DNA of 61,782 nt from a virus (lineage: Duplodnaviria; Caudoviricetes), in the IMG/VR virus record IMGVR_UViG_3300036785_000389, positions 1 to 61,782 of that record. The stretch is one strand, 5' to 3'. Of the stretch, positions 9,551 through 61,767 are shown in pieces. The position numbers and the translations under genes are program-made. The notes below the pieces were generated by a model. It did not search any database and was not told where the DNA came from. It saw only the letters and a list, made by a program, of their open reading frames with translations. How positions within the stretch are numbered: the stretch's first letter is position 1; the number at the start of each line of letters is the position of its first letter.

Positions 9551-10663
9551 CTACTTGTTAACGGTATTAATAACGATGTCGCCAGTCGTCCAGCCGCCGT
9601 TGGTGTTGTCGGTGTGGCCGTAAGCGCCACTGATGCAGTAGGCCAATCCATTTGACAGGAGAATGCCGACCGGACCGAGATTAGGACTCATCCCCGGCGA
9701 GGTCGCACTTGACATGAGATCGAACTCGAATACGAGATTGGTCGCTGACGTACAGGTAGGAGCACTTGCCGAATTGTAAATACGGACGTTAGCAATGTGT
9801 GTCCCGGTGTTCGTAGCGGTGACGCTGTATAGCGTCGTAGCCGCTGCGGTGATGAAGTTCGTCGCGACCGCTCCACCGGCAGGTGTAATAGTCGTTCCGC
9901 CTGCGCCACCAGTCGCGCCCGCCGCAGGAATAGTAGAGCCGATAATGGTCGAAGTTGGCGATGCGGCTGGGATCGGCCCCGCGATGCCGTTGGCGATGTT
10001 CTTGAGCAACGCAATCTCTGTGCCGTTGCCGGATACCCATGCGCTGTCGCCAATCGCGCCGAGGGCGACGATTGAGCCATCTGCCCACGAACCCGAGGCC
10101 GCTGCGCCCGAGGCGAACGCACCGGAGGCATAGGCCCCCGACGCCACGCCGCCAGAGGCGATTGTAACTGCACCGCCGCCGCCCGACCCGCCGCCGCCGC
10201 CCCAACCAGTCGGCAAGCCTGAGCCGCCAGAAGCGATGACGACGTTCGACGTGGAACCTGTCTGGTCGATACAGGCAAAGTGGTCGTAGGTTGTTGCGCT
10301 ATAAACAGTAGAAATAGCCAAGCCGCTAGATGCTGGTATTTGAAGTTTGTTTGTCGCGCCCGTCGCCGCGCCGGAAGCCAGCGTACAGCTAACCGTTGTC
10401 GTTCCAGAATTGAATAAAACAACAGAACCTGAATTAGTTGGTATCGCTGTTGATGCGCAGGCTGAATCTGTCGCGGTACAAGTGGCGTAAGATAAACTTG
10501 GAGCAAAACCGGCAATGGAGGCGCTGACCGAAGCGGAAACCGCCAGAGGGTTGGAGACGCTTACAAAATCCGTGCCGTTCCAGATTCTGACCGATTGCTG
10601 TGCGTTAACGGACGTTATGAGAAGCAAAAAAGCGGCTAAAACACTTGCAAATCTGGTCAACAT
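9551..10663 (-). CDS. Signal-peptide virion/adhesin-like protein, G/S/A-rich
   Basis: RBS GGGGAG; MLTRFASVLAAFLLLITSVNA signal; three Cys pairs; ASGA repeats; C-terminal jelly-roll-like segment. Confidence 0.7.
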   Translation of the reverse strand: MLTRFASVLAAFLLLITSVNAQQSVRIWNGTDFVSVSNPLAVSASVSASIAGFAPSLSYATCTATDSACASTAIPTNSGSVVLFNSGTTTVSCTLASGAATGATNKLQIPASSGLAISTVYSATTYDHFACIDQTGSTSNVVIASGGSGLPTGWGGGGGSGGGGAVTIASGGVASGAYASGAFASGAAASGSWADGSIVALGAIGDSAWVSGNGTEIALLKNIANGIAGPIPAASPTSTIIGSTIPAAGATGGAGGTTITPAGGAVATNFITAAATTLYSVTATNTGTHIANVRIYNSASAPTCTSATNLVFEFDLMSSATSPGMSPNLGPVGILLSNGLAYCISGAYGHTDNTNGGWTTGDIVINTVNK

Positions 10664-10731
10664 GGACGGCTCGCTCCCCTTTGAGATTAGGAAAGCTAAC
10701 ATAACACTTGACAAACGGAAAGCGGGGGTAA

Positions 10732-10842
10732 TCAGCCCGTCCTACGGCGCCATTCGGCCAAGGAAAACTCAAATATCTCCAGAGCCAAGATGGCAAACTC
10801 GCCAATGAGGATCAAGACAAGAAGGGTGTATTCGGACGGCAT
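10732..10842 (-). CDS. Small membrane peptide
   Basis: MPSEYTLLVLILIGEFAILALEIFEFSLAEWRRRTG; one hydrophobic helix. Confidence 0.4.
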   Translation of the reverse strand: MPSEYTLLVLILIGEFAILALEIFEFSLAEWRRRTG

Positions 10843-10880
10843 GACCGTAGGGTGTCTGGTAATTGTGACGCCCGCGTGTC

Positions 10881-11015
10881 TCAGGCAAAAACCATCAGGA
10901 AAATGGTGAGGGTGCCGATGGCGGACAGAAGGCAAAGGGCGACAAAAATCCTAGTCGGCACCAGAACCATGCCCGGCACGTAAGGGCGCATATAAATCAG
11001 TTGCGGGTCATCCAT
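10881..11015 (-). CDS. Small membrane peptide (44 aa)
   Basis: MDDPQLIYMRPYVPGMVLVPTRIFVALCLLSAIGTLTIFLMVFA. Confidence 0.4.
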   Translation of the reverse strand: MDDPQLIYMRPYVPGMVLVPTRIFVALCLLSAIGTLTIFLMVFA

Positions 11016-11049
11016 TGGGAACTTTTATCCCCTATCGTTGTTACCGGAC

Positions 11050-11250
11050 ATGATCGAAACCCTCGTCTCGCTTATCGTGTGGTTGGTGATCGTTGGCCTT
11101 ATTTATTGGGCTGTGACGACTATCCTCGGGGTGATGCCGATCGCGGAGCCGATTGCCACTGTGATCCGGGTTTTGTTGATCGTTGTACTGTGCCTCATCA
11201 TCATTTACGCGCTGCTGCCGTTAACGCATGTGCATGTCAGCCTGCATTGA
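11050..11250 (+). CDS. Small two-TM membrane protein (Thivi_2564-like)
   Basis: MIETLVSLIVWLVIVGLIYW...MPIAEPIATVIRVLLIVVLCL. Confidence 0.7.
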   Translation: MIETLVSLIVWLVIVGLIYWAVTTILGVMPIAEPIATVIRVLLIVVLCLIIIYALLPLTHVHVSLH

Positions 11251-11253
11251 GCG

Positions 11254-11892
11254 TCACGGCGCTAACGAACCTTGTTTAGGTTGATCGACGCTTGATAGTC
11301 TCCATGTAAAACGTCCCGGCAATGGGTCGCCCATGAAAAACCCAACTGTGGTCTGACCCTTCCGTAGGGCAGATCGATATTCTTCTAGGATGGACACGGA
11401 AGGCTCGAACGCTGCGTGTTCGACAAAGAGAAAACCCTCCTCACTGAAAATCTCGTAGAAAAACTCGCAAACCTCATCTCTGACCCCGCGCGGTCCGCGT
11501 TTCTCCGGTTCCTCTGGAATAAGAACTCCATCCTCGACCGCCCGGACCCGTTTTTCCTTCGGTGCCCGTGGCCCAGATAAAAGATTTAACCTCTTGGCCT
11601 CTCTCCGATCGCAAGACCGAATCACATCAACCGCCGCCTGGTCAGTACCAGCCGCCTTGATCGCCGCAGAAAGCCCTTGCAGTAAGGTAATCGCCGATCC
11701 GGTAACGGTCGCCTGTACAGCAACATCGGCCTGTAGCTTGGAAAGGTCCGCCATAGCATCATCCTCCTTTTGCAAAAGAAGCGCCAGCATCGATCTTAGC
11801 TCCCAGGCCCATTGCGGCGCTCCATCAAACGGGTCTTGAGAGTGGTGAAGGTGAAAACCGTGCAGCCGGAACCCGTGAATGTCAAAGACCAT
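11254..11892 (-). CDS. Probable deletion-fusion of two phage genes
   Basis: Common phage coiled-coil MADLSKLQADVAVQATVTGSAITLLQGL..AGTDQAA switches abruptly near 11625 to unrelated sequence. Confidence 0.5.
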   Translation of the reverse strand: MVFDIHGFRLHGFHLHHSQDPFDGAPQWAWELRSMLALLLQKEDDAMADLSKLQADVAVQATVTGSAITLLQGLSAAIKAAGTDQAAVDVIRSCDRREAKRLNLLSGPRAPKEKRVRAVEDGVLIPEEPEKRGPRGVRDEVCEFFYEIFSEEGFLFVEHAAFEPSVSILEEYRSALRKGQTTVGFFMGDPLPGRFTWRLSSVDQPKQGSLAP

Positions 11893-11930
11893 CTCAACCC
11901 CCCCTTCGCCGCACGCCGCTTGCGCATATA

Positions 11931-12446
11931 GACAACACGTCCATCCCAGTGCCATTCGAGTGCTTCTATGCAGCGGAGGTGGTCGACGCCGCCAGAGTAG
12001 AGCGCGCGATCCATGAGGCGTTCGATGATCATCGTGTCAGGAAAAGTCGAGAGTTTTTCAGGCTGTCCCCCGATAAGCCCAAAGCTATCATCGAGCTGCT
12101 CTGCCTCAAAAATGTGACGCCCGGAGATGAACTGTTCACAGAGGCCGATGACAAAGAAGCGCTTGGAGAGGCCAAGAAGCGCAGAGCCGCTTTTAACTTT
12201 TCGATTGTCGGCATTGCTCCTGGCACCGTCCTGCAATCCGTCTTCGACGACCAGATAACGTGTATCGTTAAAGGCGACCGTTCGGTCGACTTTCGAGGCC
12301 AAGAACACAGCCTGTCCAGCTCCGCCCTCGAAGTTGCCCATGAAAAAGGTTTTGGCTGGTCAGCAATCGCCGGCCCCCAATATTGGAAATATGAAGGCAA
12401 AACTCTTTCAGAGCTCAGAGAGGAAAAAGCGGGCGACGAAGATTAA
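11931..12446 (+). pseudogene. 5'-truncated T5orf172/GIY-YIG-family protein with RAMA-like C-terminus
   Basis: Starts mid-domain at DNTSIPVPFECFYAAEV..ERAIH..REFF; C-terminal SLSSSA..GPQYWKYEGKTL; N-terminal GIY-YIG/KIG part absent. Confidence 0.75.
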
Positions 12447-12489
12447 GATTTCGAAAGGCGTGGCTTGAGAAACGTTTGAACGGTATGCC

Positions 12490-13128
12490 ATGGCATCAGA
12501 TTTTATAATTGGACAGACATATAACCGCCGAAAAGACATTCACGCGCATTACAGTGGTCAGCGGCAAAGCGGAATTGTTACGCCAGCAAATTATCCGGCC
12601 GTCTTCATCTTCACGGGCCGTGGCACACGGCATGGGTACGCCGATGATTGGTCGGCCGATGGCACCTTCCGTTATTTCGGAGAGGGTCAAAAGGGCGATA
12701 TGACCCTTACGAAGGGAAACAAAGCGATTGCCAATCACGCAGCCGATGGCAAAGACTTGTTGCTCTTTGAGATGCTCGGTGGTGGCAATATTCGATTTCG
12801 GGGACCATTTAATTGTGCCGGGTATTCATTTGAGAACGGCAAGGACCAGCACGGCAACATCCGCAAGGCTATCGTTTTTCACCTAGTGCCCATTGCCACC
12901 GAGGGCGCTGAATTAGATCTCCCGCCGCTCCTTGGTTCTGGCATCAGCCTGGAGGAACAGCGCAAGAGAGCCCTTGCTGCCGCAGGCCCTGCCCGCGAGA
13001 GTGAGCGTGAGGGTTCAAACCGAACCTATCGCCTGCGCAGTCAGACAATCCGGCAGTATGTGCTGGCGCGCGCAAAGGGCGTTTGCGAAAGTTGTGATCC
13101 CGAACAAATCCCGCTCCGACATTTATGA
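12490..13128 (+). pseudogene. ScoMcrA-like SRA-HNH modification-dependent restriction protein, truncated before the HNH core
   Basis: YNRRKDIH..GQRQSGI..GYADDW..YFGEGQKGDM..GNKAI; stops 10 aa after VLARAKGVCESC with no HNH motif. Confidence 0.8.
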
Positions 13129-13430
13129 TCATTTGTTTGGCAAGTTTCTGCGCCTTTTCCTCTCGCCAATCGATCTTCCGGTCAAATTCATCGTCGTCTC
13201 GTTTTGATGGTTGCTTGTAAGCCCACCAAGCGCTCCGCCATGAGTTACCTTCGACCGCTTTTGGACACTCTCGCAGGACCTTTGCCATTGTATTGATTGT
13301 TCGCAATGAGACGGTGGTTAGGTCTTTTATGTGCTCATATGTTTTCGTTCCTTTCTTTACCAATCGAAATGCAGCATCAAATTTCTCAGCCCTAGTCATT
13401 CGCAACTTGTCTTTAACATTCACCCGCAGC
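13098..13430 (-). pseudogene. Internal fragment of a probable rhizobial ParB-like protein
   Basis: NVKDKLRMTRAEKFDAAFRLV followed by HTH-like VSLRTINTM; both ends cut. Confidence 0.4.
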
Positions 13431-13721
13431 CTTGACGCCTTCCGTCTTGAGGTGGAACGAATTACGCGGCCTAAAATAAAGCCTCACATAGTTATGTGCA
13501 TCTGGATTGTTCCAAACAGCACCTTGATTAGCCACATCACAGATCAAATTGCCAACATTGCTTCTGCATTTAATTTCGCCCGATTTTACGATCTCGACGG
13601 CGACCTCAAGTTGGCAGGTATGAAATAGGTGCACCGGCCAATTAGCTCTAACCGGGAATGGCGCCAATTTAGACGACCATTCCTTCGAGTGGCGCGCCGC
13701 ACGTTTTACAGTGATAGACAT
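13413..13721 (-). pseudogene. darT: N-terminal fragment of DarT (DUF4433) DNA ADP-ribosyltransferase toxin
   Basis: LFHTCQLEVAVEIVKSGEIKCR..DVAN..AHNYVRLYFRPRNSFHLKTEG; only 102 aa, C-terminal catalytic Glu region missing. Confidence 0.75.
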
Positions 13722-14209
13722 TCCTGGTGGTATTCCGAAGCTTGCGCGTTCTTGCTCAGTAATTCGTCGCCTACATGCAGACTGTGAATGTAGATTGGAA
13801 TACTGATTTTGCCCAAATAGCGCTCGATAATTGGCTTGACGTCGGTCCAATTCAGATTGCCGTTTCCGCAGCCCAAGGGCGGGAACGATGCCGAGACAAT
13901 TCCCATTTTTTCGTAATTTTGTACGAACGTCTCAAGGCCCTTTTCAATGTATTCAAGCTTCGACGGCAATTGCCACGTAGTCTTAGTCGGAAAGTTCAAC
14001 ACCCAACGACCGTCGCCCTTCCAAAGGTGCAGGTCGCCGATCTTAAACTCTCCACGGTCGCAAAGCTTACGGTACTCTGCGAACATCGCGGGGTAGCGAT
14101 CTCGAAAAGTTTTAGCAATACCCTTGCCCATAACTCCCACGGTGTTCACCGTATTCACCAGGGTTTGGGCCGGAGAATCAAATAGGCTGGCGTAAATATA
14201 GGTTAGCAT
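13706..14209 (-). CDS. darG: DarG-like macrodomain (ADP-ribosyl glycohydrolase); domain intact, C-terminal region replaced
   Basis: QTLVNTVNTVGVMGKGIA, LNFPTKTTW..SKLEYI, FPPLGCGNGNLNW; upstream intergenic DNA retained. Confidence 0.85.
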   Translation of the reverse strand: MLTYIYASLFDSPAQTLVNTVNTVGVMGKGIAKTFRDRYPAMFAEYRKLCDRGEFKIGDLHLWKGDGRWVLNFPTKTTWQLPSKLEYIEKGLETFVQNYEKMGIVSASFPPLGCGNGNLNWTDVKPIIERYLGKISIPIYIHSLHVGDELLSKNAQASEYHQECLSL

Positions 14210-14443
14210 GCGTTCTCTGTTCGTTCGAGCCACCGTACCATACGCTGATTCGTTGTGTCGAGTTTCTACGGTTGGAGCGTGCCTCAATCCACAGAACAAC
14301 TGGCCGACTATAGCCGCAGTTCGGTCCGCTTTCAGCTTCGCGAGGTTGATTTATGGTTTGCAGAGAGCCCTATTTCCCTCGACCCCAATAGATTCTGATC
14401 AACAAATGGAGGCGAAGCAACATTGTCTTCTTCATCTTGATGG

Positions 14444-14650
14444 TTAATCACGCATGTAAGACCGGCGTGTATCAATATCGTTGTAGGTCGTAGCCTCTCG
14501 ATTTGACGCGATCACAGCCTCCCCGGTCTTTGGACGCGCCCCCCGGGCGGACACTCGCGGCATCACACCTGAAACCTTCGGGCACGGCCTCCCCACCCCA
14601 ACCCTAAAAGGGTGGTTCTGACCACACTCCAAACAAGAATACCAATCCAT
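14444..14650 (-). pseudogene. 5' half of a phage Zn-finger/basic protein gene split by the insertion
   Basis: CLEC..H..C, then DTRRSYMRD; continues at 11928 as YMRKRRAAK. Confidence 0.7.
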
Positions 14651-15078
14651 AAAGTTAATCTGACACCGTTAGTTTAACGAAGGCAAGGCGACTACATAAA
14701 CCATTTTCATTTTCCGGGGGAAAGGGTGAGGTGCCCTCTAATCATCCTCGCGCCGACCCATTTACTTGCAAAAAACACCGCCGCAACCGGAAATACCCAC
14801 GAAATTTCAAACCCTCTATTAAGCTTCTGACGCCCTCCCCGGCGCTGAATATCGAGTTCGATCGGCACCTCATTTTCTGCCGGCAGAAAACTCCTGAATA
14901 AATATCTCCAATTTCTCAATTATTTCAATACCACAACATATCGAGACGTACACACTTACAAGACCGTCACTTACCAAGCGCAAGGCTTTGAGCCATGGGC
15001 GCATCCTGACCTGGCCGGCGATCAATCACGGTGCGATTTTGCTGGCGCCGAGCTGCCGGATCGCGCTATGTGAGGCGC

Positions 15079-15432
15079 ATGGGCGTTCAGCAAGCCGAGC
15101 CGGTCGCGCGCGTAATTAGCCGTCGGAAACACCCCCGCGCAGTTCCCAAACACCACGCACCCTTAAAACGGATGCACCGGGAAACTGGAGTTGATTTGTT
15201 AGCTGAGGCTATCTGGCCTTGGCATTGGGCAGCGTATCCAGGGCTACTTAAGGGGTTGTGGGGGTTGTTTGGGCCGAGGGCGGCTAAGGTCACTATCAGA
15301 GATTGGCGAAGGGGCCGTAGGGGCGCCCCTGTATGGGCCTTAGACCTTCTAATAGCCGAGGCGAGGAAGCGGGTCGCTGTACTATCGGCCGCAATTGAAC
15401 GAGCCGAAAAAGAAAAAACCACGCGGAAATAA
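15079..15432 (+). CDS. Hypothetical HTH-like basic protein
   Basis: TIRDWRRGRRGAPVWAL. Confidence 0.5.
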   Translation: MGVQQAEPVARVISRRKHPRAVPKHHAPLKRMHRETGVDLLAEAIWPWHWAAYPGLLKGLWGLFGPRAAKVTIRDWRRGRRGAPVWALDLLIAEARKRVAVLSAAIERAEKEKTTRK

Positions 15433-15570
15433 TAGCGTATTTGCCTATTTAGATCAATCCCCACATGCGTCTTTAAGACGTAACAATTCGTGATTAGACA
15501 TATACGACATTAAGGCTCATTGGTTCATTCATGCCCGATTGGCGTTGGGCAATAACCGAGAGGACTTTCC

Positions 15571-15855
15571 ATGAAACGCGACCTTTATCAGTCGGTAACA
15601 GATTCCATCCTAGCTAAGATGGAAACCGGAGTTATGCCATGGCAACGCGATTGGAGTTCGACCGGCCCTAGCGTTCCCATGAACGCGATTAGCGAGCGCC
15701 CCTATTCCGGTATCAACGTATTGCTCTTTTGGGCGAGTGCCGATGCCGGATATGCAAAACCGCGATATGTGACGTTCAAACAAGCCAAAGAGGCCGGCGG
15801 TACCGTATACCTACGCGGCTTGGCGATTGCCGAGCCGCAAGCGATTGCAGCGTGA
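15571..15855 (+). CDS. ardC: ArdC-like N-terminal ssDNA-binding domain (truncated antirestriction protein)
   Basis: DLYQSVTDSIL..GVMPW..W..N..RPYSGINVLL..YVTFKQA..AGG; no zincin domain; RBS GAGAGG. Confidence 0.8.
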   Translation: MKRDLYQSVTDSILAKMETGVMPWQRDWSSTGPSVPMNAISERPYSGINVLLFWASADAGYAKPRYVTFKQAKEAGGTVYLRGLAIAEPQAIAA

Positions 15856-15860
15856 TCGCC

Positions 15861-16115
15861 ATGAATCGCAACGCAATCGACTTTAGCGAGCGCATGGAAC
15901 AAGGCAACGCTAATGCGCTCGACTACCGGAATCAAGGGCGCGGCGGCACCGTGCGCGTGTTCAAAACCACCGCAGAAATGTACCGCAATCAAACTTTCGA
16001 TTGTTGGGATGTGCTGCGCGCCGAGGTCAAGGCCACATGCAAGCTCGTATTGGCCGAGATCGACGGCTCTAGGCTCAATAAAATCCTAGGAGATGACGAT
16101 GGTCTATCATTCTGA
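15861..16115 (+). CDS. Hypothetical protein
   Basis: ORF in the early cluster. Confidence 0.45.
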   Translation: MNRNAIDFSERMEQGNANALDYRNQGRGGTVRVFKTTAEMYRNQTFDCWDVLRAEVKATCKLVLAEIDGSRLNKILGDDDGLSF

Positions 16116-18975: not shown

Positions 18976-19164
18976 TCAGTTGATTTTAGGCGGTTCCCGG
19001 TCTTTACAGTCGCCGCAGCACCACCACATCAGCAATGACCATTGGCCGTGAACCGGACCAAGATCGCCCACAAAACGCCAGCCATTCGATAGCGCCATAA
19101 TCACTAGGCGATGTGCCACGAACGCGAAAATTCCGCGCGTAGGACTTTCTAATCGACTAGGCAC
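18976..19164 (-). CDS. Small hypothetical phage protein
   Basis: FVAHR..GW..DLGPVHGQWSLLMWWC. Confidence 0.5.
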   Translation of the reverse strand: MPSRLESPTRGIFAFVAHRLVIMALSNGWRFVGDLGPVHGQWSLLMWWCCGDCKDREPPKIN

Positions 19165-20050
19165 AAGCGGCCTCACGAGCAAACAGGTCATCTTGTCGGT
19201 CCTGGGCGTCCAGATAACGGCAGGCTTGGCGCCAATAACTCTCTTTCAGCTCTACGCCGATAAACCGGCGCTTTAATTTCAGGCTCGATACACCTTCGCT
19301 TCCGATGCCCATGAATGGCGACAAAACGACATCTCCGGCGTTGCTCCACATAATCAATGCGCGTTCGATAACGTCGAGCTGCAGGGGGCAAAGGTGGCGT
19401 TCGTCGTTTTTCTCACGCGCCAGTTTGACGTTTAGAACGTTGGATTGTTGCACAGTCATCCAAACCGGAGACGCCCACTCCTGCCATTGATCGAGGGGAA
19501 AATCTTGCGGGGTGTGATTGATAGGGTCGGGGTTGTCGCCTGGCTTGATGAATGTCAGCAAATAGTCAGGCATTCCACCGCGCGATTTGCTGCTGTCTTT
19601 TTGCAGTTGCTTGTAAAGCAAGCCAACGTGCTTAGTACGGGTCATTTCGACAACCGGACATTTCCAGATTGTCCGGCGCCCATGATAAATCCATCCAGCA
19701 TCTTCATGGGCGCGAATAATCTGGCCGCTGAAATCCTTAATCCCAACCGCGCCGTCTTTCCATTTTGTCATCGGCAGGTCGGAACAATGCACGGCGGTTA
19801 GCCGTCCAGGCATTGTCACTCGTAGTTTTTCCCGCACTAAAAAAGCATAGTGCTCGGAAAATTCTTCATCCGTGCTGTTGCCCATATCCGCCGCTCCTTC
19901 GGAATAAACAAAAAGAGATCCGAACGGCGGAGAATAGACCGAAAATCCAACGCTATCCTGCGGCAACTGGCTAACAACATCGACGCAATCACCGTTAATG
20001 GATTGATAATTATTGCCGTGCGATTCGTTTAAGCAGCGGATTTTATCCAT
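19157..20050 (-). CDS. DNA N4-cytosine/N6-adenine methyltransferase (beta class)
   Basis: GDC, YSPPF, HLCPLQ, VLSPFMGIGS, GVELK. Confidence 0.93.
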   Translation of the reverse strand: MDKIRCLNESHGNNYQSINGDCVDVVSQLPQDSVGFSVYSPPFGSLFVYSEGAADMGNSTDEEFSEHYAFLVREKLRVTMPGRLTAVHCSDLPMTKWKDGAVGIKDFSGQIIRAHEDAGWIYHGRRTIWKCPVVEMTRTKHVGLLYKQLQKDSSKSRGGMPDYLLTFIKPGDNPDPINHTPQDFPLDQWQEWASPVWMTVQQSNVLNVKLAREKNDERHLCPLQLDVIERALIMWSNAGDVVLSPFMGIGSEGVSSLKLKRRFIGVELKESYWRQACRYLDAQDRQDDLFAREAACA

Positions 20051-21417
20051 TGGACAAGCCTTGCAGTATGAGTGGGGTTGTACGGGATTTTACGATCAAC
20101 GATATGGCCGGTCGCACGCAACATGGCGGAGCGCATTGCCTTCTTCATCGAGGTGTGGTCGCCGGCCTTGCGATCGATGACGCGACCGATTGTATCCTCG
20201 CCTTCGGCAACAATCAGGTGAACGTTGACGTGCTTTTTCTGACCAAATCGCCAGCACCGACGAACAGCTTGGTAATAAGTCTCGTAGCTGTACGATCGAC
20301 CGACAAACGCCATGTTAGCGCAATGCGACCAATCAAGACCGAATCCACACATCGACGGCTTGGCGATGAGATGTGTAGCTTTTCCGGTTGCAAATGCCTC
20401 TAGCTTTTCTTCTTTTTCATCTATCGTTTGCGATCCTCTAATTTCAATCGCGCTAGGAATAGCCCGTTTTAGAGCATCAGCCTCATAGTCGGTATCGCAC
20501 CAAATCAGCCACGGTTTTTTGTCCACAAGAGAAGCGGCCATTTCTGCCCGCGCTTCGCTCGTTTGTCGTTTCACGTCATGCAGAGTGGTTGCGGACATAA
20601 TCGGCGCGCCAAACATATCGGCCAGTTCGCGGTCTATGCGGCTGTCTTTTGCCTTGTGCCGATGAACCGTAAATGGTGGCAAAATAAAGCCTTTGTCATC
20701 CGCAATTTTATTGGTGAGGTCTGACGGCTTCTCGGCCATCCTCGCCCAAGACGCCATCCAATCCCAAAACGCCGTGACGGCATGGCCCTTTAATCGCCAT
20801 TGCTGACTTGCGGTTGACGTATCGTTGATGAAAAACCGCGATAGCATTTCGACCGCCGCCATGATTTCAAGAAACTCTCCATAGTTTCCCAATTCCATGT
20901 GATCGTTCGGCGCTGGCGTCGCCGTCGCCACCAACTTGAACCTATGCCCACGGAACGCATCGATTAACGATCGCGTCGTTTTTCCGGTGAAAGATTTAAG
21001 GATTGATGCCTCATCCAAAGACACAATCCCAAATGCAAAAGGATCGAGCTTATCTACGCGGTCATAGTTGCAAATGTTGATGCCCGGTCCCGCGTCTGAT
21101 TGTTCTCGGATGATCCTAGCCTCATAACCCCATCGATCCGCGCGTCGTTTTGTCTGACCCGCAACAGCGAGCGGCGTTAGAATAAGGGCTTTATCGTTCG
21201 TGACCTCAATTGCTTTTTGACACCATTCTAATTGCACTTCGGTCTTGCCAAGTCCGGTATCCAGAAAACAACCGGAAGCACCAGATCGTAGAGAAAAATC
21301 AACGCAATGATTTTGAAACGGAAAAAGGTGAGCAGCTAAGTTACTGACTCGCTCTAATCCTCGGCCTTTTGCCTTAATGGCTTTACTCTGCAAAAACGTT
21401 TGATAATCCTTATTCAT
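20029..21417 (-). CDS. SNF2-like superfamily 2 helicase
   Basis: LDTGLGKT, LDEAS, TATPAPND, QAVRRCWRFGQ. Confidence 0.92.
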   Translation of the reverse strand: MNKDYQTFLQSKAIKAKGRGLERVSNLAAHLFPFQNHCVDFSLRSGASGCFLDTGLGKTEVQLEWCQKAIEVTNDKALILTPLAVAGQTKRRADRWGYEARIIREQSDAGPGINICNYDRVDKLDPFAFGIVSLDEASILKSFTGKTTRSLIDAFRGHRFKLVATATPAPNDHMELGNYGEFLEIMAAVEMLSRFFINDTSTASQQWRLKGHAVTAFWDWMASWARMAEKPSDLTNKIADDKGFILPPFTVHRHKAKDSRIDRELADMFGAPIMSATTLHDVKRQTSEARAEMAASLVDKKPWLIWCDTDYEADALKRAIPSAIEIRGSQTIDEKEEKLEAFATGKATHLIAKPSMCGFGLDWSHCANMAFVGRSYSYETYYQAVRRCWRFGQKKHVNVHLIVAEGEDTIGRVIDRKAGDHTSMKKAMRSAMLRATGHIVDRKIPYNPTHTARLVQWIKSAA

Positions 21418-59709: not shown

Positions 59710-61078
59710 CTAACATCTCCTTTAACGCTTCTATGATCTGCTCGAATACTGGTCCCCACTGGCGGTCTTTGCCTTGGCGAAAAATTCTATGTTTTGGTGT
59801 CCAGAGCATGTCTTTTGTATCTAGCCCAAGACGATAATCGCGGCCTAGATAACTATACAGGAGCCAAAATTCTTTGCCGGTCGCGGCACAGATATGGCCG
59901 AGAGCTGATTCGCATCCGATTACGAGGTCAAGGTCGCTCAAAACCGCGAACGTATCGGCCACGTCGCGCAAGTAGGGACCAAGTTCCCGCACCAACCCCG
60001 AACCGCCGCTGTCTCCAATTTCTTTGGCGCGGTCGCCAACCTGCAACGAATAAAGTTGAACTCCTGGCACCCGATACAATTCGTAAAATTCGTGTACGGG
60101 AATGGACCTGTGCATGTCGAGATTGTTCAACGGTGAACCGGCCCAAGCAATACCGATGTGTATCTTTCGATCCGGCACCTTCCAGTTCAACGGAATTTGC
60201 CAGTTCGATATTTCAATCTGTTTGGTATTACGAATAGTTGCGTCATCAAGTCCCAATGCGTTTGGCAGACTTACAAAAGTCGTCCAAGCATCAGCCGCCG
60301 GGAACACTTGCCCGTTCGGAATGAGATTGAGATTTCTTATGTCGTTGAACACATGCACAAACAGTCGCATCAGCTCGGGCTGAATCGCGGCATGAACATA
60401 TTTCGATTTCTCACACAGCATCGGCACAAACCGAGCGAACGAAAGCGTATCCCCCAAACCCTGATCGGCGCTAAGAAACACCGTCTTGCCGGCGGTGCCG
60501 TCCCATTTAGGATACGGGTACTGGAGATAGTTTTTCAGCTTGTAAGGAAAACGGGCTTCGAGATGATTGAATCCTTCGACCAATTCTCGATTAAACAATA
60601 AAGCAAGTCCCAAACCGAACTCGACTAGAGGATCGTCGGGCATCAATGCGTAAGATTTACGTGCAGCATCCGCCGATTTCTCCGCATCGTCAAGTATCTG
60701 GTAGATGTTGGCGAGCGTGATCCAGCAATACCCGTTTTTCGGATCGACTTCGACCGATTGCAATCCAGCCTGCAATGCTTCTTCAATGCGTCCGAGAGTC
60801 AACAGACGCCATGACATATTTCCGAGAATTTTTGATTTCTGATCGGAGGTCGTCTCGCATTGCAGCCCGCGACGCCAATAAGCAACGGCGGCGTTGAACA
60901 AGTTCAAATCGGATATTGTATTGCCGTTCTGGTAAAAGGCGTCGGAAAACGTTGGATCGACCAAACACGCCGACGAAATACACTGGTAAGCATGCTGCAA
61001 TGCCTGCGGATTTGATTTGTCCGACAGGCTGGCAATACCGGAATTGAGAAGATCGACAGCGTGCTTACGATCACCCAC
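59693..61078 (-). CDS. TPR-repeat glycosyltransferase (GT9/GT-B-like)
   Basis: TPR helices, then DQGLGDTLSFARF, IGIAWAG, SLQ, DLVIGCESALGH. Confidence 0.88.
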   Translation of the reverse strand: MGDRKHAVDLLNSGIASLSDKSNPQALQHAYQCISSACLVDPTFSDAFYQNGNTISDLNLFNAAVAYWRRGLQCETTSDQKSKILGNMSWRLLTLGRIEEALQAGLQSVEVDPKNGYCWITLANIYQILDDAEKSADAARKSYALMPDDPLVEFGLGLALLFNRELVEGFNHLEARFPYKLKNYLQYPYPKWDGTAGKTVFLSADQGLGDTLSFARFVPMLCEKSKYVHAAIQPELMRLFVHVFNDIRNLNLIPNGQVFPAADAWTTFVSLPNALGLDDATIRNTKQIEISNWQIPLNWKVPDRKIHIGIAWAGSPLNNLDMHRSIPVHEFYELYRVPGVQLYSLQVGDRAKEIGDSGGSGLVRELGPYLRDVADTFAVLSDLDLVIGCESALGHICAATGKEFWLLYSYLGRDYRLGLDTKDMLWTPKHRIFRQGKDRQWGPVFEQIIEALKEMLDVSKR

Positions 61079-61766
61079 GCACCCGCTCCATGATTCTCTG
61101 CATCTGGTTTGCTTGGAACGGCTTGCCTGAGCGGGACAAAATGCCTTCCTTCCTACACTGGCGTAGGATTTTCCAACGTGACGCTCGCTCTCCCTCGATC
61201 ATTGATCGAACCCTTTCGATAACTGCCTGTTCCTCGGGAATAGGCTCAAGCTGTGCCTGTTTTCCCATCCCCACCTTACGCCAGCCATAAGGAACGGTTC
61301 CTATGCAGCCGCCCCTAGCCCGCTTGGCCTCGCGACCATCCTGCATACGCTCGGCAATACGAGAGCGTTCAAACTCGGCCATGAGCGCCAACATGCCGAA
61401 AAACAACTTGGCGGTTCCGGAATCGGTCACAGGCTCAACGCCAAGGTCTATCAGGATCAAACCGATACCGCGTTTCTTCAAAAGATCGGCAGTATTGAGA
61501 GCGTCGGACGCCGAACGGAACAAGCGATCTAGTTTTGTGCTAACTATAATATCTCCCTTGCCGGCGTCGGACAGTAGTTTCCCGCCATTGGGACGTTCCG
61601 CCAAAGGAATTGTTCCTGATACTCCAGCATCGACATAAGAAACAAACTCATAGGCAAGATCGACGCCGCGCATCTCGGCCAGTGCCTTGACCTTGCGCTG
61701 TTGCTCTCGCAGCGACGTGCCTTCAATCTGTTCCTCGGTCGAACAGCGAGCGTACCCTAAGATCAT
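61071..61766 (-). CDS. Serine recombinase (resolvase/invertase family)
   Basis: GYARCSTEEQ, DAGVSG, KLDRLFRS, AEFERSRI..R, PYG. Confidence 0.93.
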   Translation of the reverse strand: MILGYARCSTEEQIEGTSLREQQRKVKALAEMRGVDLAYEFVSYVDAGVSGTIPLAERPNGGKLLSDAGKGDIIVSTKLDRLFRSASDALNTADLLKKRGIGLILIDLGVEPVTDSGTAKLFFGMLALMAEFERSRIAERMQDGREAKRARGGCIGTVPYGWRKVGMGKQAQLEPIPEEQAVIERVRSMIEGERASRWKILRQCRKEGILSRSGKPFQANQMQRIMERVRG

Positions 61767-61767
61767 G
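61642..61767 (+). repeat. Terminal direct repeat copy 2
   Basis: Identical to 1-126. Confidence 0.95.

Follow-up and report, generated by a model that had tools for sequence, protein, structure and literature searches.

A block of truncated defense genes in a soil phage genome

The DNA under study is an IMG/VR virus record (IMGVR_UViG_3300036785_000389; Duplodnaviria, Caudoviricetes), and "the window" here means the whole of this record, 61,782 bases with a completeness estimate of 96%, which occurs in two soil-metagenome runs (X1 and X2). Between the tail-fiber genes and the divergent early region of the phage lies a block (11931-14444) of five genes, all of them truncated. On the plus strand it carries the remainder of a PDC-S57/T5orf172 (GIY-YIG-like) gene (P1', 11931-12446) and part of an SRA-HNH gene of the kind found in ScoMcrA-like type IV restriction (P2', 12490-13098); on the minus strand there follow an internal fragment of a ParB-N/HTH protein (P3', 13099-13427), a stump of the toxin gene darT (darT', 13416-13721) and a 167-codon open reading frame (ORF) for a DarG2-type macrodomain (darG', 13709-14209). 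An earlier sequence-only reading had seen here a foreign mosaic of defense genes, each of them disarmed, and both points are borne out: the nearest relatives are bacterial or mobile-element genes from soil Alphaproteobacteria, and the start of the GIY-YIG domain, the HNH core and DarT beyond ~100 residues have been lost. On balance we regard the block as recombination debris with one plausibly useful survivor, the DarG macrodomain, which would be an orphan antitoxin of the AdfM type.

The darG-darT module and its internal deletion

A query with the macrodomain ORF returned 13 genome loci, the closest being metagenome-assembled genomes labelled Rhodopseudomonas (L004) and Roseiarcus (L005). In both, a darG gene of ~300 amino acids (aa), comprising the macrodomain and a C-terminal domain, is followed by a gene of 316-318 aa whose ATG overlaps the darG stop, and the products of the latter pass the Pfam DarT profile (48.9 bits in L004 and 32.9 in L005, cut-off 22.5), the relatives covering profile positions 1-190. 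The two genes overlap by 16 nucleotides (nt) in these loci (L004 5004-6838, L005 5001-6844), and DarT continues for ~100 aa beyond the Pfam domain. That darG precedes darT in these relatives is the reverse of the textbook DarTG gene order.

A darT homolog lies behind darG in 10 of the 13 loci, and the distance from darG start to darT start is 875-935 nt in eight of these ten (in one of the others it is 2087 nt, and in the other the hit begins at query residue 28). The same distance in the window is 488 nt, and ~400 nt that stand between the two matches in bacteria are missing. Two alignments place the losses: ~130 codons of the DarG C-terminal domain are gone in frame, with the last ~10 codons (ASEYHQECLSL), the stop and the darT start kept (alignment A1), and DarT breaks off after about residue 97-100 (alignment A2), leaving the first ~97-100 of 316 codons with a native ATG that still overlaps the darG stop. 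Taken with the darG-darT order in the relatives, these alignments identify the junction at ~13762 as an internal deletion and not a seam. The sequence-only reading had counted about four joined pieces with a boundary at this point; a mosaic it remains, but this junction is an in-frame deletion inside a single darG-darT module of Hyphomicrobiales type.

The module is 74-80% identical overall to its relatives (macrodomain 78-80%, DarT N-terminus 69-74% at the aa level), with darT' 72% identical to the L004 DarT and 69% to that of L005 in alignment A2. Its GC content is 49% in the window and 49-52% in L004-L006, where the flanks have 58-68%, and on this difference between module and flanks the darG-darT module is taken to be mobile itself. 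Compared with DarTG2 (PF14487, NF048014, PADLOC DarG/DarT), both genes are recognizable, and L004 and L005 carry full DarG and DarT, whereas the window retains ~100 of 316 DarT residues and a DarG without its C-terminal domain, which leaves no working toxin-antitoxin or defense system. On its own, darT' aligns with positions 10-74 of the 201 of Pfam DarT at 14 bits, below the cut-off of 22.5; roughly a third of the domain is left, and the full DarT domain of a functional DarTG2 is not present in the window.

Two other shortened or solitary forms came to light. On plasmid p3 of Rhizobium binae (NZ_CP071607.1, 1241-3414), a full-length DarG-like gene lies beside IS3 and IS66 transposase genes, which occupy the place where darT would be expected, and this may be another darG orphaned through toxin loss; a distant search of PLSDB returned only the macrodomain gene on the Rhizobium binae plasmid. 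A short DarG-like protein of 166 aa (P0050), encoded on a 24-kb ENA contig and 76% identical, ends after the macrodomain at a different point, and would be an independent macrodomain-only form.

State of the macrodomain

The domain encoded by darG' is complete, covering Pfam Macro at positions 1-117 of 118, PADLOC DarG at positions 1-144 of 329 (9e-58) and NCBIfam DarG at positions 6-147 of 338, and it matches the Taq/Thermus DarG macrodomain (PDB 5m31) at 5e-34 with an identity, estimated from the alignment, of ~50%. An Asn and a Lys are named as active-site residues of the macrodomain (Taq N22 and K80) in the figure 1 legend of PMC13309987; by an inferred mapping of the numbering these correspond to N22 and K76 of the window, and both are invariant in 28 of 28 aligned sequences, the window included. 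The motifs VNTVNT and FPTK are conserved. Among the fragments only the macrodomain is left with its original start and stop, with its domain entire and with both catalytic residues, and it has the same orientation as the surrounding minus-strand operon. At the level of sequence, darG' has the marks of an AdfM-like protein: it stands alone on a virus contig, with the C-terminal domain deleted and darT cut at ~100 of 316 residues.

Remnants of the other genes

P1' has lost its first ~31 residues and kept its native C-terminus. Its likeness to PDC-S57, a candidate defense gene, is strong (PADLOC, 1.2e-50, profile positions 43-207 of 212), but the GIY-like start of ~31 residues, the gene's own start codon and its ribosome-binding site are lacking. 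A full-length relative (L022) has 211 aa, covers T5orf172 at positions 2-98 and shows a weak GIY-YIG match; homology to it begins at window position 11928-11931, opposite its residue ~31, and the start of the GIY-like domain is therefore missing from P1'. Accordingly, P1' covers only positions 42-100 of the 101 of Pfam T5orf172, so that this domain is incomplete, and no in-frame start precedes an internal GTG at 11949, which lacks a Shine-Dalgarno sequence. The label RAMA, which the sequence-only reading had attached to this gene, did not withstand the profile search: for 12150-12446 no Pfam family was found at E<=1, and beyond T5orf172 and MUG113 none at E<=0.1. A full-text literature search for 'PDC-S57' found no papers.

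P2' keeps its native start and a probable SRA (modified-cytosine-binding) domain and is cut after the first CxxC of HNH, at 13096-13098, directly after CESC, the ORF extending for 10 more codons to 13128. It matches phrog_15103 (5e-51, positions 6-211 of 280) and the SRA region of ScoMcrA (PDB 5zmm, 1.5e-5), and scores 16 bits with Pfam SAD_SRA, below the cut-off of 30.7. What it appears to have in common with ScoMcrA-type SRA-HNH proteins (PDB 5zmm; phrog_15103) is the SRA domain, together with the linker to the first CxxC; unlike them it is without the HNH catalytic core, and neither the window nor its close relatives (269-277 aa) have the sulfur-binding domain of ScoMcrA. These full-length relatives run on ...GVCEGCE/APAPF...HH...CPNCH and reach 36.4 bits with Pfam HNH, so the core is present in the relatives only. 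With a closer metagenome relative (L108) the blastn alignment ends exactly at 13098, after which L108 enters HNH; with two others (L106 and L107, 79-84% identity) homology begins at 12487-12496, another neighbor lying upstream. The SRA-HNH gene of L106 (689-1243) adjoins a serine recombinase, and that of L108 (202-962), itself disrupted into two frames, lies next to a fragment of a tyrosine recombinase; from these neighbors the closest SRA-HNH relatives appear to sit on mobile DNA.

P3' corresponds to residues ~131-238 of proteins of ~270-307 aa and has lost both ends, the N-terminal DGHHR domain and the C-terminal ~70 aa. A phmmer search of 1.84 billion representatives gave 47 hits, the best apart from itself being a 307-aa protein (P0002) that is 72% identical over residues 131-238. 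P3' has no match in Pfam; its full-length relatives begin, by eye, with a ParB-like DGHHR region, in which Pfam ParB_N and ParBc_2 stay below cut-off.

The sixth truncated gene, an anti-restriction stump (ArdC', 15571-15855, plus strand), lies ~1.1 kb from the block. It covers ArdcN positions 2-79 of 123 and has no metalloprotease domain, and its remainder is absent from the whole window. A full-length ArdC-like ORF (L083, an open frame of 294 residues) matches the window only at its residues 5-87 (15559-15807). A low-depth contig of 230 nt from run X1 shares only 15814-15856, with loose ends on both sides. The ArdC stump extends truncation beyond the block and makes it a general trait of the region.

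Debris, survivor or cassette

In the order of events that we infer from this anatomy, illegitimate or low-homology recombination in a soil phage would have turned part of its accessory region into a scar field. Mobile defense modules would have contributed at least three segments of DNA, probably four, joined head to tail with loss of gene ends: a PDC-S57 gene without its N-terminus, an SRA-HNH gene without HNH, the middle of a ParB-like gene and a darG-darT operon. The operon would then have lost, in frame, the C-terminal domain of DarG, described in the literature as the DarT-binding domain, and DarT beyond ~residue 100. Toxin and nuclease parts may have been lost first as harmful to their carrier, DarT in the absence of a full antitoxin and HNH by acting on the phage DNA if this is methylated. 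The phage encodes RecT and RusA, which we count in favor of a recombination reading; recombinases such as these favor recombination at short homologies. The 167-aa macrodomain could be made by read-through from a phage minus-strand promoter, and would remove the ADP-ribose that a host DarT2 puts on thymidine in the single-stranded DNA of the phage, the other fragments most likely being inert debris awaiting deletion. Three promoter-like sites were found in 11000-15600, all on the minus strand and one of them at 14335-14307, against 3.8 expected by chance, so that the scan overall was not above chance.

Orphan antitoxins carried by phages against DarTG are already established. AdfM is described as a macrodomain anti-DarT factor of chimalliviruses directed against DarTG2 (PMC13309987), AdfN as a NADAR orphan antitoxin of T-even phages directed against DarTG1, for which co-option of an orphan antitoxin from bacterial defense systems is proposed (PMC11825919), and AdfB as a small protein that is likewise an orphan anti-DarT factor (PMC11481870). 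AdfM and darG' are both phage-encoded stand-alone DarG2-like macrodomains, without a DarT-binding domain and with the catalytic Asn and Lys kept, and the activity expected of darG' would likewise be the removal of DarT2 ADP-ribose from DNA. They differ in that darG' is a direct and recent derivative of a bacterial darG (74-80% identity), one that has kept a toxin stump and its last native codons, and in that its carrier is an unrelated, non-jumbo soil phage. With AdfN, darG' shares the logic of an enzymatic antitoxin moiety carried by a phage without the toxin, but the fold of AdfN is NADAR and not macrodomain, its target is DarT1 and guanine, and it shows no adjacent toxin remnant. What sets the present locus apart is the fresh bacterial darG derivative with its toxin stump, and the window appears to offer a genomic intermediate in which an intact macrodomain stands next to a toxin gene cut to a stump, the toxin-binding domain having been lost in frame. 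If the 167-aa protein is active, the range of macrodomain anti-DarT factors would reach beyond jumbo phages and include an ordinary soil phage, and one concrete way in which such factors come about would be in view.

The strongest alternative, which we consider unlikely but a serious contender, is that the whole block, macrodomain ORF included, is recent non-functional junk that has not yet been purged. All five block genes are cut and ArdC nearby is cut too, with P3' deprived of both ends. In the macrodomain and the darT stump, the non-synonymous branch of the window is not longer than those of the bacterial relatives, and no fragment contains an internal stop or frameshift, from which it follows that the rearrangements are recent; since nearly all of the divergence was accrued under constraint and the truncations are recent, the intact frames need no selective explanation. 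Several further points weigh against a working survivor. There is no Shine-Dalgarno sequence upstream of darG' (a point of little weight, as just 18 of the 34 long phage ORFs have one), and a deletion falls in frame with a chance of 1 in 3. Synonymous sites are saturated, so the ratio of non-synonymous to synonymous change (dN/dS) is unusable for judging selection after truncation. Other short DarG-like proteins lie mostly on short contigs, whose ends may have cut them. No related phage was found, and the conservation of darG' and the pre-insertion state can for this reason not be judged; the expression and enzymatic activity of darG' are predictions. What speaks for a useful macrodomain and against mere junk is that this ORF alone has its start, stop, domain and catalytic residues in place, that it is co-oriented with the phage operon, and that macrodomain-only and NADAR-only orphan antitoxins are proven phage counter-defenses (PMC13309987, PMC11825919).

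The sequence-only reading had gone further and proposed that the phage captured part of one host defense island and pared it down to an anti-defense cassette. No evidence points to a single donor island: in the loci fetched, relatives of P1, P2 and darG-darT are never neighbors, P1 and P2 being adjacent in none of them; the five genomes with the closest darG-darT relatives hold no P2 homolog; and among samples of 401 same-order genomes P2 relatives occur in five and P1 relatives in three, the sole genome with both having them on different contigs. The paring down fares no better, given that P3' lost both ends, that the darT stump is a leftover and that P1' and P2' run antisense to the operon with no promoter-like site on the plus strand.

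That several surviving domains are kept for counter-defense seems to us improbable. Their roles would be those of an SRA-only protein shielding modified phage DNA from type IV enzymes, a PDC-S57 remainder acting as a decoy and an anti-DarT macrodomain, and such a reading would account for an apparently intact SRA domain and a native start in P2' with a cut exactly at the start of HNH, for the native C-terminus of P1' and for the lack of stop codons inside the fragments. It accords poorly with a P1' deprived of its start and opening at an internal GTG without a Shine-Dalgarno sequence, with the antisense position of P1' and P2', with P3' and darT stumps that have no plausible role, and with the absence of a detectable RAMA domain. 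ArdC is a genuine anti-defense gene and is nonetheless cut mid-domain; truncation therefore does not spare useful parts, and a sixth truncated gene so close by favors recombination debris over a designed cassette. Anti-defense proteins that are SRA-only, or that consist of a truncated PDC-S57, are to our knowledge without precedent. A broader version, in which a phage counter-defense is being born, the captured darG-darT turning into an orphan antitoxin and the SRA-only and PDC-S57 remainders being domesticated into a multi-target anti-defense island, strikes us as similarly improbable. The block invites the caution that defense-gene fragments, however densely clustered in a phage, do not by themselves make a cassette. 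It resembles phage morons and mosaic accessory regions in having foreign genes between conserved modules, gene-internal joins and no hallmarks of transposition; what is unusual is the density, with six truncated defense or anti-defense genes within 4 kb and none intact.

Borders of the block and the supposed split gene

At the left end of the block, homology to the PDC-S57 relative begins at 11928-11931. On the right, a stretch upstream of darG' (14210-14446, minus strand) is non-coding by codon score in all six frames; its first part (14210-14252) is still homologous to the bacterial darG leader, blastn against L004 reaching 14252, and the rest (14253-14446), non-coding by the same score, has no assigned source. 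The right edge lies somewhere within 14253-14446 and is not independently placeable.

It had been claimed that the block interrupts a phage gene and is flanked by TA on both sides. The minus-strand ORF 14447-14650 (68 codons) does end in ...RRSYMRD-TAA (stop at 14444-14446), and the minus frame from 11930 does read YMRKRRAAKGG...GPGS over 44 codons (11799-11930) before a stop at 11796, so that the two frames are joinable, as the claim had it; that they are halves of one gene is less secure, the upstream part being an ORFan of ambiguous codon score and continuity of frame a 1-in-3 chance. The 68-codon ORF has no homolog in IMG/VR or in a collection of 5.8 billion proteins, and scores 0.011 per codon, against 0.071 for the 5th percentile of in-frame genes and -0.137 for the 95th percentile of off-frame ones. 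A complete small ORF or a non-coding leader would fit equally well. Over the proposed 3' half another frame does at least as well by codon score (0.118 against 0.06), and the ORF 11799-11930 has no match in the 80 phage loci kept for the helicase comparison described below, wider collections not having been queried with it. A 181-codon antisense ORF (11796-12341, minus strand) reads through P1' and on into the phage flank, sharing its frame with this proposed 3' half, and the antisense frame of P1' scores as coding (0.144). A regular-expression search for the motif YMR-x-YMR-basic over ~1 Mb of fetched loci gave no hits, as did the shuffles, and is hence uninformative. A split phage gene is possible but somewhat doubtful.

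The flanks are weaker still. TA is a repeat of 2 nt only, and the wider likeness of the borders, TACATGCGTGA against TATATGCGCAA, amounts to 8 of 11 positions, a match reached in 1694 of 5000 shuffles (34%) of the possible right border (14252-14650, 399 nt), that is, within chance; that it should fall at the end of the ORF is a coincidence which we estimate, rather than compute, at a few percent. Joinable frames on either side, and borders that both fit TAYATGCGYRA (a pattern derived from these two sites, so that the count of two hits is post hoc), would suit a discrete mobile element that inserted at TA, split a phage gene and duplicated its target. Such an element is very unlikely in view of an interior patched together from separate fragments, with sharp breakpoints inside genes, a right end that cannot be placed on its own, a 68-codon ORF without a homolog and a border match at chance level. 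As the sequence-only reading had noted, there are no terminal inverted repeats at the ends of the block, and no transposase was matched among the block ORFs scanned (Pfam, PHROG, PADLOC, NCBIfam). Nor did any of the ORFs scanned match an integrase.

An assembly chimera, conceivable for a record from a metagenome whose pieces differ in GC content (46-55%), can be practically dismissed, since Logan contigs of run X1 (30.8 kb, spanning 10500-16000) and run X2 (7.5 kb, spanning 11801-16000) cross all junctions with 0 differences and even depth, which means that the junctions are not the artefact of one assembly, even if both runs may be source samples of the record and their support is then not fully independent.

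The phage and its genomic setting

Elsewhere in the window the phage encodes a helicase, a DNA methyltransferase, the RecT recombinase, a small serine recombinase and RusA, together with further large ORFs without a family match, among them a tail-fiber-like gene. Ordinary phage genes resume beyond the left edge of the block with a gene (11257-11754, minus strand, MADLSK...) that has an AAGGAGG Shine-Dalgarno sequence; it has no relatives in scans of IMG/VR or of JGI metagenomes, and an Atlas search returned only low-score viral hypothetical proteins. No hits came from Rfam and tRNA scans of the window, and no RNA dataset containing the stretch is listed.

Related phages are absent from INPHARED in near and distant searches, and IMG/VR scans with the supposedly split ORF, the downstream gene and a 505-aa neighbor returned no phage relative. 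With the tail-fiber gene, IMG/VR yielded one stretch (L002) that shares this gene alone. The helicase (19157-21417, minus strand) behaved differently as a query, matching 474 IMG/VR stretches at 60-84% aa identity, and its neighborhood was compared in 80 loci kept of these 474. The methyltransferase next to it also matches in 80 of the 80 kept loci (86-89% in the best four), and almost none of the other genes near the pair are common to them; with so few shared neighbors the helicase-methyltransferase pair looks like a widely exchanged two-gene cassette. The flank ORFs and the pieces of the block have no match in these loci. From the nearest relatives of the pieces, the host is probably a member of the Hyphomicrobiales.

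Positions 1-126 of the window are 100% identical to 61642-61767, a direct terminal repeat that ends 15 bases inside the record end, and by this identity the record, classed as linear, is probably circular or terminally redundant. The end copy is flanked by an 18-nt inverted repeat (CATAAGAAACAAACTCAT ... ATGAGTTTGTTTCTTATG), which sits at the start codon of the serine recombinase gene (61071-61766) and could mark either an invertible segment or an assembly hairpin.

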